Of a stretch of DNA of 64,000 nucleotides, positions 20,990 through 23,567 are shown piece after piece (the first letter of the stretch is position 1; each line of letters starts with the position of its first letter). Source of the stretch: Escherichia coli (GTDB taxonomy: Bacteria; Pseudomonadota; Gammaproteobacteria; Enterobacterales; Enterobacteriaceae); the NCBI RefSeq assembly GCF_044324875.1, contig NZ_CP172185.1. One strand, 5' to 3'. The notes under the pieces were generated by a model. The model saw only the letters and a program-made list of their open reading frames with translations. It searched no databases and had not been told where the DNA came from. The position numbers and the translations under genes are program-made.

Positions 20990-22078
20990 TCACGGCAGGC
21001 GGTGGCGAGCTTGATAATAAGCCTGCCAGTGAGCTTCTTTATGTGTAGCGACACGTTGTTCGAAGTAACGGCGCAGACGTGCGCGATCTTCTTCGTTATC
21101 TTTGACGATGGTTCCGGCAATACAGTCCACCAGGTCGGCAGGCTCCCCCGCGCGATTCGCTAAAAACCAGGCGCGGACACCCACAGCATGGGCCACGTTA
21201 ACGGCTTCAGCGGTGGACATAATCGCTGTCAGTGTATCCATTGACGTTTTCTTTTCGCCGTTGGCACGCAGATCGCGGAACGTGCGCACCAGTAATTCCA
21301 GTACCGCGTCAGGCACTTTATGCGGAATACCGCTATGGGCCAGCAAACGCGCCGAAGCACTGGCAACCAGTTCCAGCTCCTGGGCGAAATCCATAATCGG
21401 AAAGACAGTTTCAAAATCGAAGCGACGCTTTAGCGCAGCACTCATTTCATTGACGCCGCGATCGCGGGTATTGGCAGTGGCAATAATATTAAAGCCTTCC
21501 CGCGCATAGAGCTGACTGGCTTCACCAGTGAGTTCCGGCACCGTCATTACCCTGTCAGAAAGCATACCTAACAGACAGTCTTGTACTTCCAGCGGTGTAC
21601 GCGTTATCTCTTCAAAACGGACGATTTTGCCGTCGCGCATTCCCTGGTAAAGCGGGGCAGGGACCAGCGCTTCCGTTGATGGACCATGATTGATAAGCAG
21701 AGCGTAGTTCCAGCCGTACTTGATTTGATCTTCGGTGGTAGATGCGCCGCCCTGGATGGTTAACCCGGCATCGCCGCTAATAGCGGTTGCCAGTAATTCA
21801 GACAGGAGAGATTTTGCGGTGCCAGGTTCCCCCACCAACATCAAACCGCGCCCGGTAGCGAGAGTGACTAACATGCGTTCGACAGCGGAGGGACTGATCA
21901 CGACTTTACGGCTAATATTTTGCGCTTCGTCGCCAAGGATAAAAGCACGGGCCGCAGGCAAACTTAACTGCCAACCGGGCGGGCAAGGTGCGTTATCATT
22001 TTGTTTTAATTTTGCCAGTTCATCGGCGTATAACACAGCAGCAGGTGGACGCTGCAGATGATTATTCTGCGGTGACAT
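20990..22078 (-). CDS. yehL: MoxR-like AAA+ ATPase YehL
   Basis: 362 aa from MSPQNNHLQRPP; Walker A GEPGTAKS. Confidence 0.85.
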   Translation of the reverse strand: MSPQNNHLQRPPAAVLYADELAKLKQNDNAPCPPGWQLSLPAARAFILGDEAQNISRKVVISPSAVERMLVTLATGRGLMLVGEPGTAKSLLSELLATAISGDAGLTIQGGASTTEDQIKYGWNYALLINHGPSTEALVPAPLYQGMRDGKIVRFEEITRTPLEVQDCLLGMLSDRVMTVPELTGEASQLYAREGFNIIATANTRDRGVNEMSAALKRRFDFETVFPIMDFAQELELVASASARLLAHSGIPHKVPDAVLELLVRTFRDLRANGEKKTSMDTLTAIMSTAEAVNVAHAVGVRAWFLANRAGEPADLVDCIAGTIVKDNEEDRARLRRYFEQRVATHKEAHWQAYYQARHRLP

Positions 22079-22189
22079 ATATTCATCCCTGAAATGTATT
22101 AATGAAATAAACGATATTTTACGCGCAATAAATGTTTGCCGCATTAGTTGTTTGAGCGAAAAATATCTGGAAAGCAGATCACAGTACAT

Positions 22190-22272
22190 AAAAAAACCTG
22201 CTGGTGAGGCAGGTTCTTTTATTTACTATTTTCAGGCCCAACACCGCAGCCTGTGCAACATCGTGTTCCAAC
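22190..22272 (-). ncRNA. Predicted OrzO/OrzP-like antitoxin sRNA, copy 1 (about 80 nt)
   Basis: Minus-strand promoter TTGCAA-17-TATAAT (22307-22279), intrinsic terminator (hairpin 22197-22213, T-run on minus strand); 5' ~19 nt complementary to 22419-22438 in the toxin 5' UTR. Confidence 0.5.
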
Positions 22273-22278
22273 GAACGA

Positions 22279-22329
22279 ATTATAACCATCGGTGGACCCC
22301 GTTGCAATTAAGATAATGAGATTTATAAT
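22279..22329. promoter_or_regulatory. Back-to-back divergent sigma-70 promoters sharing one palindromic -35 hexamer TTGCAA (copy 1)
   Basis: Plus: TTGCAA(22302-22307)-16-TATAAT(22324-22329); minus: same hexamer, 17-nt spacer, TATAAT (revcomp of 22279-22284). Confidence 0.5.
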
Positions 22330-22510
22330 CCAGACGGTTGGGACGTTGCGCCGGATCGGACCAATTTTAAGTCCTGGCTACCGGACGGGTGGTGCTGCAG
22401 GTGGTGCCCTGATCCGGAGTGCAACATCGTGGTCCAACATACGTAAACCAGTATCGACAGGCAGTGTAAGGGTAAGGTGCTGGTGTTGCGCTCCTTAATA
22501 AGGAGAGCGA

Positions 22511-22600
22511 ATGGACACGCTGACACAAAAGTTAACCGTGCTCATTGCTGTACTGGAGCTATTAGTGGCTCTGTTACGGTTGATTGATTTGTTGAAGTAA
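22511..22600 (+). CDS. Type I toxin-like small hydrophobic protein, 29 aa (ZorO/ZorP-like), copy 1
   Basis: MDTLTQKLTVLIAVLELLVALLRLIDLLK; SD AAGGAG 6 nt upstream, sequestered in a cgctcctt/aaggagcg hairpin; the only two nucleotide differences versus copy 2 are synonymous. Confidence 0.65.
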   Translation: MDTLTQKLTVLIAVLELLVALLRLIDLLK

Positions 22601-22799
22601 CGGGCAAATTGAAACGCATCTAAGGGGGAAAACCGCTTCCCCCTTTAATAAAATGATTACTGTTTTTATTAATTCATCATATAACTCATTTTTATTTATA
22701 AATTCATCGATTTTATATTCAACGTACCGTTTAACCGGGATGTGAATATTTATGGTGGGCTATTGGCAAAAAATATCTGGAAAGTAGATCGCAGAAAAT

Positions 22800-22880
22800 A
22801 AAAAAACCTGCTGGTGAGGCAGGTTCTTTTATTTACTACTTTGATGTTAAGTTACTGATAGTGCAACATGGCATCTCAAC
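22800..22880 (-). ncRNA. Predicted OrzO/OrzP-like antitoxin sRNA, copy 2
   Basis: Same promoter/terminator layout as copy 1; 5' region complementary to 23027-23046. Confidence 0.5.
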
Positions 22881-22886
22881 GAACGA

Positions 22887-22937
22887 ATTATAACCACCTC
22901 TGGACAGTGTTGCAATTAAGATAATGAGATTTATAAT
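22887..22937. promoter_or_regulatory. Back-to-back divergent promoters sharing TTGCAA (copy 2)
   Basis: TTGCAA at 22910-22915, TATAAT at 22932-22937 (plus) and revcomp of 22887-22892 (minus). Confidence 0.5.
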
Positions 22938-23118
22938 CCTGACTGTTGGGAAGTTGCGCCGGATCGAACCCATTTCAAGTCCTGGCTACCGGACGGGTGG
23001 TGCCGCAGGTAGTGCTCTGATCCGGAGTGCAACATGGCGACTCAACATACGTAAACCAGTATCGACAGGCAGCGTAAGGGTAAGGTGCTGGTGTTGCGCT
23101 CCTTAATAAGGAGAGCGG

Positions 23119-23208
23119 ATGGACACGCTGACACAAAAGTTAACCGTGCTCATTGCCGTACTGGAGTTATTAGTGGCTCTGTTACGGTTGATTGATTTGT
23201 TGAAGTAA
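23119..23208 (+). CDS. Type I toxin-like small hydrophobic protein, 29 aa (ZorO/ZorP-like), copy 2
   Basis: Identical peptide to copy 1 with two synonymous changes (gct/gcc, cta/tta); same sequestered SD. Confidence 0.65.
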   Translation: MDTLTQKLTVLIAVLELLVALLRLIDLLK

Positions 23209-23261
23209 CGGGCAAAGTGAAACGCATCTAAGGGGGAATACCGTTTCCCCCTTTAATAAAG

Positions 23262-23567
23262 CTATTTTTCTATTTCTTGGTTGAATATATTCTGTAGTTC
23301 GCGATTAAAAATTGCTATTACCGTTTCAGGTGATTCACCTCGTAATTTCCGCTCATCAATAAACTCATCTCTTATATAAATCAACGCATCATTTATTAGC
23401 GGGTCGGCATCATTAAATGTTGGATGTAGCTGGAACCGTTCCAGTCGGTAGACGGAACCTGTAAATAATTCAGAGCATTTATGGATCTCAAGTCTGAAGG
23501 AAAACGGATCTTCAGGTACAGGGACCTCATAATTGTAAATAGCGACCAGCTCTTTTTGCACGCTCAT
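23262..23567 (-). CDS. yehK: Small uncharacterised protein YehK
   Basis: 101-aa ORF at the expected position between yehL and yehI. Confidence 0.7.
   Translation of the reverse strand: MSVQKELVAIYNYEVPVPEDPFSFRLEIHKCSELFTGSVYRLERFQLHPTFNDADPLINDALIYIRDEFIDERKLRGESPETVIAIFNRELQNIFNQEIEK

Follow-up and report, generated by a model that had tools for sequence, protein, structure and literature searches.

The zor-orz loci of Escherichia coli O157:H7 are the closest described systems to the locus analyzed here. Fozo 2010 described the ORFs z3289 and z3290, each coding for 29 aa and arranged in tandem between yehI and yehL, together with divergent sRNAs of ~85 nt, mapped transcription starts and toxicity, and the yehL-yehK/yehI interval is the published chromosomal site of zor-orz (PMC2887945). 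The system was later dissected in Wen 2014 (PMC3919570), Wen 2017 (PMC5397157), Otsuka 2019 (PMC6669753) and Bogati 2022 (PMC9860968). For the O157 zorO-orzO pair, whose peptide is identical to that found here, toxicity of the ORF and rescue by the sRNA have been reported (PMC2887945, PMC3919570), and the rescue is RNase III-dependent (PMC3919570). The processing and standby model of the zor 5′ UTR likewise comes from this O-type copy (PMC5397157), and published work assigns the target specificity of Orz to an element named V1 (Orz +9 to +11). ZorO localizes to the membrane and causes membrane depolarization and ATP loss (PMC6669753, PMC9860968); its toxicity needs specific residues, and the protein is detectable from the native promoter (PMC9860968, PMC6669753). 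[quoted passage not shown]

Three further systems resemble zor-orz in part. tisB-istR-1 is similar in its divergent, non-overlapping sRNA with ~20 nt of complementarity to a long 5′ UTR, in the 5′ processing that exposes a standby region, where the sRNA pairs and RNase III cleaves the duplex, and in its small, depolarizing inner-membrane peptide (PMC5397157). However, the two systems have no sequence similarity, and tisB, unlike zor-orz, is LexA/SOS-controlled and single-copy. [quoted passage not shown] According to the 2024 survey (PMC11264685), about 113 nt of the zor UTR is 71-74% identical to a plasmid dinQ-like UTR, but a relationship is only hinted at in the literature.

We analyzed a window of 64,000 nucleotides from the E. 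coli contig NZ_CP172185.1. We read the interval between yehL and yehK in this window, with a probability of about 0.93, as a two-copy zor-orz type I toxin-antitoxin module, in which a P-type unit (unit 1) lies beside yehL and a Q-type unit (unit 2) beside yehK. The zor-orz tandem pair is an already known and well-studied E. coli system, present here in its commonest, two-copy form. The features of the locus are as follows.

20990-22078, minus strand: yehL; annotation transferred from a 99.9%-identical genome.
22272 to 22190, minus strand: orzP-type sRNA of unit 1 (83 nt), with 5′ end GUUGGAACACGAUGUUGCAC, V1 = ACG, and a rho-independent terminator hairpin (22215-22195) with U-run.
22279-22329, no single strand: divergent promoter block of unit 1, with minus −10 TATAAT at 22284-22279, palindromic −35 TTGCAA at 22302-22307 and plus −10 TATAAT at 22324-22329.
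22337-22510, plus strand: P-type zor 5′ UTR (174 nt), of which +1 to +28 (22337-22364) is lost on processing, giving a processed end at 22365; coordinates transferred from PMC5397157.
22409-22438, 22419-22438 and 22500-22505, plus strand: EAP (+73 to +102), Orz pairing site and Shine-Dalgarno (SD) sequence of the unit 1 UTR, from PMC5397157 transfer and folding.
22511-22600, plus strand: toxin ORF of unit 1, 29 codons and a stop, encoding MDTLTQKLTVLIAVLELLVALLRLIDLLK (the ZorO sequence).
22622-22650, plus strand: zor terminator of unit 1, a AAGGGGGAA-loop-UUCCCCCUU hairpin and, after it, a weak U/A tract, from folding.
22651-22765, minus strand: AT-rich inter-unit spacer (~115 nt), a candidate decayed yehK fragment.
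22880 to 22800, minus strand: orzQ-type sRNA of unit 2 (81 nt), with 5′ end GUUGAGAUGCCAUGUUGCAC, V1 = GCC, and a terminator hairpin (22825-22805) with U-run.
22887-22937, no single strand: divergent promoter block of unit 2, with its common −35 TTGCAA at 22910-22915.
22945-23118, plus strand: Q-type zor 5′ UTR (174 nt) with processed start at 22973, from homology with unit 1 and PMC5397157.
23017-23046, 23027-23046 and 23108-23113, plus strand: EAP, Orz pairing site and SD of the unit 2 UTR, from homology with unit 1.
23119-23208, plus strand: toxin ORF of unit 2, encoding the same peptide as unit 1 with two synonymous differences.
23230-23258, plus strand: zor terminator hairpin of unit 2, its end lying 4 nt from the stop codon of the yehK-like gene, which runs convergently.
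23262-23567, minus strand: yehK-like gene; annotation transferred from a 99.9%-identical genome.

Repeat families and alignment placed two direct repeat units of ~497 nt each at 22156-~22653 and 22766-~23261, with a start-to-start period of 608-610 bp, and 56 of the 500 aligned columns differ between them. An earlier model-made reading of the DNA (the first-pass annotation) had described two direct repeat units between yehL and yehK, each with a 29-codon ORF, and both coordinates and alignment agree with this description. It had also assigned the locus to the ZorO-OrzO family. This assignment is borne out by the peptide, which is UniProt ZorO, by matches to Rfam RF02083, by the published chromosomal site, and by the UTR, RBS and pairing landmarks. 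Comparison with the E. coli O157 zor loci, which the first-pass annotation had suggested, gave a family match at the same site, with zorP/orzP by yehL and zorO/orzO by yehK. The zorO-orzO/zorP-orzP locus of O157:H7 EDL933 has the same site, tandem layout, promoters, UTR length, SD hairpin and terminators as the window, and the yehL/yehK flanks recur in O157 and in the remaining E. coli RefSeq genomes that we examined.

In all 15 E. coli RefSeq genomes that we inspected, the RefSeq/PGAP annotation leaves the yehL-yehK intergenic region without genes, and NCBIfam has no model for the 29-aa Zor peptide. With this 1.2-kb region left blank, PGAP routinely misses two toxin and two sRNA genes, four in all, and the practical value of the present case lies in annotation.

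Both ORFs encode MDTLTQKLTVLIAVLELLVALLRLIDLLK, which is identical to UniProt ZORO_ECO57, the 'Small toxic protein ZorO' of E. coli O157:H7. As had been noted earlier, the two copies differ at only two nucleotides, 22549 (T/C) and 22559 (C/T), and alignment confirmed that both changes are synonymous. The peptide had been described as a TisB/DinQ-style amphipathic helix, which its composition does not bear out: with a GRAVY of 1.4 and a hydrophobic moment of 0.17-0.41, Zor is mainly a hydrophobic, transmembrane-type helix with few charged residues and is not strongly amphipathic.

The near identity of the two ORFs, set against the many differences upstream, had been taken as an argument for selection on the peptide. 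The upstream differences are real (43/295 positions vs 2/90 in the ORF, P=0.0006), but the argument is weak within the window: the 72 nt of UTR just before the ORF (+103 to +174) differ at 2/72 positions (P=1.0 against the ORF), and because this adjacent UTR is equally conserved, the contrast is not coding-specific. Divergence between the units is concentrated in the sRNA body (16/37) and in the two pairing partners. The low divergence thus extends beyond the ORF, in a block from +103 through the stop codon that fits a conversion tract, and gene conversion could add to the low ORF divergence between the units. In the stronger form of this explanation, the identity of the tandem ORFs would stem from recent gene conversion or homogenization, and the repeat would be, in essence, an RNA element in which the small ORF is incidental.

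We consider this stronger form very improbable. We compared 20 ORF copies, drawn from the window, 15 E. coli RefSeq genomes and three further Escherichia species. Of the variable sites, 6 were synonymous and 3 non-synonymous, against an expected synonymous share of 26% (P=0.011). This synonymous excess supports selection on the Zor peptide. A matching count for the 72 nt upstream was left out of account, since an indel in one copy had inflated it. Conservation of the ORF in homologous loci, on which the first-pass annotation had let its reading depend, held over the 20 copies. In E. whittamii and two other Escherichia species the peptide is identical despite synonymous changes, and the residue-dependent toxicity of ZorO and its detection from the native promoter (PMC9860968, PMC6669753) also speak against an incidental ORF. 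Gene conversion and selection can coexist, and we retain selection on the peptide as the preferred reading.

We then consider transcription of the two units. In unit 1, a promoter scan placed the plus promoter at TTGCAA from 22302, a 16-nt spacer and TATAAT to 22329, and the minus promoter at TTGCAA from 22307, a 17-nt spacer and TATAAT to 22279. The promoters of unit 2 are arranged alike (22910/22937 on the plus strand, 22915/22887 on the minus strand). Four such sites vs 2.7 expected in shuffles is not a significant count, but their positions are exact for the published 174-nt UTR, and they agree with the sigma-70 promoter, ~174-nt 5′ UTR and divergent minus-strand promoter proposed earlier. 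The same promoter hexamers are conserved in at least 99% of loci (PMC11264685), and the divergent geometry is kept in three other Escherichia species.

In every copy examined, one palindromic −35 hexamer serves both divergent promoters. If only one RNA polymerase fits this palindromic −35 at a time, transcription of toxin and antitoxin would be mutually exclusive, and promoter competition would set the toxin:antitoxin ratio cell by cell. We regard this as a rather unlikely consequence of the architecture. Term searches of PMC3919570 and PMC11264685 returned no discussion of such −35 coupling, and the same hexamer is given there for both promoters.

The zor transcription starts, 22337 in unit 1 and 22945 in unit 2, were predicted from the published RBS at +164 to +169 (PMC5397157). 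The predicted zor mRNA is 314 nt in size, or 286 nt once processed, in keeping with bands published at ~310 and ~280 nt (PMC3919570). The terminator consensus scan did not call the zor terminator, which has a poor U-tract. In both units, the SD sequence AAGGAG lies 5 nt upstream of the ATG and is paired to CUCCUU in a hairpin with arms GCGCTCCTT and AAGGAGAGCG, whose stem carries a 1×1 G/A mismatch. The SD had earlier been proposed to be buried in a cgctcctt/aaggagcg hairpin. The burial is borne out by folding, but the literal 'aaggagcg' is not in the sequence, and the stem is interrupted by the mismatch.

Folding gave a consistent picture of the SD. MFE and centroid folds both show it paired, with an unpaired probability of 0.07-0.27 in the unit 1 leader models and at most 0.27 overall, and it stays largely paired whether the full-length, the delta-28 or the delta-82 RNA is modeled, in agreement with published probing. 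The first ~28 nt of the leader pair with the EAP region in the folds. The MFE z-scores of the UTR folds (−1.4 and −0.7) are not significant alone, and the opening of the EAP upon processing is small in prediction and absent for unit 2. In one MFE fold, the EAP sequence GGAGUGCAAC paired with the anti-SD GUUGCGCUCC, which suggested that the SD might be released by delta-28 processing. We rejected this as the main mechanism: the shift in accessibility is small and inconsistent (0.07 to 0.27, in unit 1 only), the O type is mismatched in the helix, and probing shows the RBS structure unchanged.

On the minus strand, the sRNA 5′ ends at 22272 and 22880 were fixed by the published V1 numbering (+9 to +11; GAA in OrzO, ACG in OrzP). 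Both sRNAs match Rfam RF02083 (OrzO-P) over the full model, with 101.3 bits (E=5e-17) for unit 1 and 91.7 bits (E=4.9e-15) for unit 2 against a gathering score of 60. The first-pass annotation had expected a minus-strand RNA of ~80 nt ending at an intrinsic terminator, and the predicted lengths of 83 and 81 nt, the Rfam matches and the hairpin with its U-run are all in line with this. The fold z-scores are −2.5 for unit 1 and −4.4 for unit 2, and the 5′ end of the unit 1 sRNA is identical to that of O157 and MG1655 orzP. Sub-threshold Rfam matches to ohsC, STnc370 and the Thr and Trp leaders were dismissed, as the terminator hairpin drives them; the ohsC_RNA match to Orz of unit 2, for example, reached 33.6 bits vs a gathering score of 50 and came mainly from this hairpin.

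We further analyzed the complementarity between each sRNA and the two UTRs. As a criterion for repression, we used an uninterrupted run of at least 15 bp, or 17 bp or more when one internal mismatch is allowed, within zor UTR +73 to +102 (PMC3919570, PMC11264685). Cognate partners pair in register at UTR +83 to +102, over 6+13 bp in unit 1 and 6+14 bp in unit 2 with one mismatch at sRNA nt 7, and this pairing lies within the rule. Both cross-pairs fall short of it, with longest runs of 9-10 bp. RNAduplex energies were −41.6 and −37.6 kcal/mol for the cognate pairs vs −31.1 and −26.1 kcal/mol for the cross-pairs. Between the units, each 20-nt partner carries 5 substitutions, with 4 identical changes at matched positions. 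Nothing else in the present data speaks as strongly for functional pairing, and for insulation of the units from each other, as this compensatory pattern. We expect each sRNA to act on its cognate toxin alone; that P and Q are orthogonal is a prediction from pairing rules that were set on the O-type pair. The window would thus represent a clean natural case of adjacent orthogonal sRNA-target pairs, separated by matched substitutions.

The same sRNA ends define the subtypes. Typed by V1, unit 1 is P type (ACG) and unit 2 is Q type (GCC), and neither is O type (GAA). The label zorO/orzO-like, if meant as a specific subtype, therefore does not apply: the V1 sequences differ from GAA, the 18-nt continuous pairing to GCAACGUUUCGUACCAAC is not present, and O-type Orz against either window target forms runs of only 5, 2 and 9 bp. 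At the protein level, both units encode the ZorO sequence, and not the ZorP (T3S) or ZorQ (A20S) variant. Unit 1 shares the OrzP 5′ end and the zorP target with EDL933/O157, but has T3 where EDL933 ZorP has T3S. At the yehK-proximal position, the Orz 5′ end reads GUUGGUACGAAAUG... in O157 and GUUGAGAUGCCAUG... in the window; the O type of O157 pairs over 18 continuous bp, whereas the pairing of unit 2 has one internal mismatch.

The Q typing of unit 2 rests on the A20S marker, which we followed with a 44-nt query centered on the substitution. A20S is carried by 299 genomes. In the three genomes fetched, each A20S unit lies downstream of a P-type unit, has a 5′ sRNA end exactly equal to that of window unit 2, and is 97.6% identical to it over the whole unit. 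Because its sRNA 5′ end equals that found beside A20S ORFs, we read unit 2 as Q type. It differs from these units in having A20 and in one base just 3′ of the target site (CAACATACG in the window vs CAACAAACG). The order P+Q between yehL and yehK is the same in these genomes as in the window.

These elements suggest the following course of events. The sigma-70 promoter of each unit would produce an mRNA of ~314 nt, in which the 174-nt leader locks the ribosome binding site in a hairpin. In the full-length leader, the first ~28 nt would be paired with the EAP region (+73 to +102), and loss of these 28 nt would expose the EAP, a probable ribosome standby site, and promote translation. The 29-aa hydrophobic product would then enter the inner membrane and cause depolarization and ATP depletion. 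In the opposite direction, the same palindromic −35 would feed the divergent promoter of an sRNA of ~82 nt. Pairing of its initial ~20 nt with the 3′ part of the EAP of its own mRNA would result in a translation block, RNase III cleavage and a silent toxin. What we demonstrated above for the window itself is its anatomy, its membership of the family, complementarity restricted to cognate partners and constraint on the coding sequence. As for toxicity, rescue, RNase III dependence, processing with standby binding and membrane action, we infer by analogy that the P-type and Q-type copies of this strain behave like the O157 O-type copy.

The distribution of the genes bears on whether silencing of the toxin is the main role. 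Among complete E. coli genomes, 5,231 of 5,426 contain at least an orz gene and 3,394 contain at least one zor ORF (median two), and ~1,086 records contain a copy with 95% identity or more to the core of unit 2. The counts for complete genomes agree with the proportions published for 2,212 E. coli assemblies, which are 42% two-copy, 25% one-copy, ~30% orz-only and 3% none (PMC11264685). The K-12 strain MG1655 has an intact orzP, both promoters and ~31 nt of zor UTR, and its orphan sRNA, published under the name OrzPmg, is expressed (PMC11264685). The earlier statement that the system is lacking in K-12 thus holds for the toxin, which MG1655 has lost, but not for orzP, which is kept and expressed.

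Toxin silencing may not be the whole function, given the sRNA-only state of ~30% of E. coli and an aminoglycoside growth benefit that is independent of ZorO toxicity (PMC9860968). At the extreme, the main role would lie elsewhere, with Orz regulating other genes in trans or insulating or modulating yehK-yehL transcription, and the toxin would be dispensable cargo. About a third of E. coli, including K-12, have an intact, expressed orzP and its promoter without the toxin (PMC11264685). The orz genes, which have strong terminators, share their strand with yehK and yehL and are found ~110 nt upstream of where yehL starts; the aminoglycoside phenotype points the same way. However, no further Orz target is known, and full loci show tight co-variation between the 5′ end of the sRNA and its site in the toxin UTR, which shows that the toxin mRNA is a selected target. 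We judge such a main role to be extremely improbable. It would add to the silencing of the toxin by its cognate sRNA, which remains our main explanation, rather than replace it.

Finally, we analyzed the sequence between the units, a spacer that the first-pass annotation does not describe. tblastn of the spacer against yehK residues ~49-86 gave 14/38 identities and 21.2 bits, a score reached by 0 of 1000 dinucleotide shuffles. The searchable text of the zor-orz papers contains no mention of the common −35, the yehK-like spacer or a variable yehK junction. Judging from this residual similarity, the spacer is probably a decayed yehK fragment that was brought along by the duplication. The junction of the locus with yehK also differs among strains.

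In each zor-orz unit, the promoter of the toxin and that of the antitoxin share one -35 element, the palindromic hexamer TTGCAA, which is read in opposite directions for zor and for the divergent sRNA gene orz:

22302-22307, both strands, TTGCAA -35 hexamer of unit 1
22910-22915, both strands, TTGCAA -35 hexamer of unit 2

The distance from -35 to -10 is 16 nt on the plus strand and 17 nt on the minus strand, and O157 and three further Escherichia species keep this double-promoter geometry. With a common -35, initiation at the toxin promoter and at the antitoxin promoter could be mutually exclusive. The orz genes run in the same direction as yehK and yehL, on the minus strand, and the zor genes are convergent with yehK. 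The yehL start codon lies about 110 nt downstream of the OrzP terminator (orzP at 22188-22272, the stretch towards yehL at 22079-22190, minus strand); read-through from orzP would run into yehL, and read-through from yehK would run antisense to zor.

Within the zor UTR, the EAP region (+73 to +102) contains a segment, GGAGUGCAAC, that is complementary to the anti-SD strand, GUUGCGCUCC, including one G-U pair:

22413-22422 and 22487-22496, EAP segment and anti-SD strand of unit 1
23021-23030 and 23095-23104, EAP segment and anti-SD strand of unit 2

This helix is present in one minimum free energy fold of delta-28, the zor mRNA lacking its first 28 nt, where it would free the SD, and if formed it would also explain why, in published work, the GAG-to-CTC mutant lost its toxicity. 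Nevertheless, the ensemble accessibility of the SD is nearly unchanged despite the possible helix, and published probing is at odds with SD release by this pairing. On these two grounds, it is probably not the mechanism.

Beyond unit 2 lies the yehK-like gene:

23262-23567, minus strand, yehK-like gene encoding 101 aa

Its product is 90% identical to K-12 YehK, with an internal 5-residue deletion; in the closest genome, RefSeq names the gene only as "hypothetical protein". The adjoining yehI is annotated as frameshifted in that genome and is an intact 1214-aa ORF in the window. Strains differ in the sequence that joins the final zor terminator to yehK (window 23254-23300; comparison loci L002, 3150-3225, and L005, about 1690-1900). 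In the window, the terminator directly abuts the yehK-like stop codon, while O157 has about 55 additional nt and a B2-lineage strain about 250; this additional sequence may be similar to an ERIC/IRU repeat.

The spacer between the two units, translated on the minus strand (22651-22765), gives an open stretch of 38 aa, which shares 37% identity with residues 49-86 of YehK (21.2 bits), a score matched by none of 1000 dinucleotide shuffles. Therefore, a piece of yehK was probably carried in the ancestral duplication of about 608 bp, and would have decayed since.

In K-12 MG1655, the region homologous to 22156-22367 (L003 2060-2270, L004) still has the orzP gene and its terminator, the two promoters and about 31 nt of the zor UTR. 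The endpoint of the deletion and the site of delta-28 processing are no more than a few nt apart. This orphan sRNA has already been published as OrzPmg.

O-type units, by Orz/zor pairing class, occur in Escherichia sp. E1V33 and E. whittamii, and a P-type unit in Escherichia sp. MOD1-EC7003 (L013, L014, L015). Since both classes are common to E. coli and other Escherichia species, their distribution suggests that they may be older than the E. coli species boundary. All three of these genomes encode a toxin peptide identical to that of the window.
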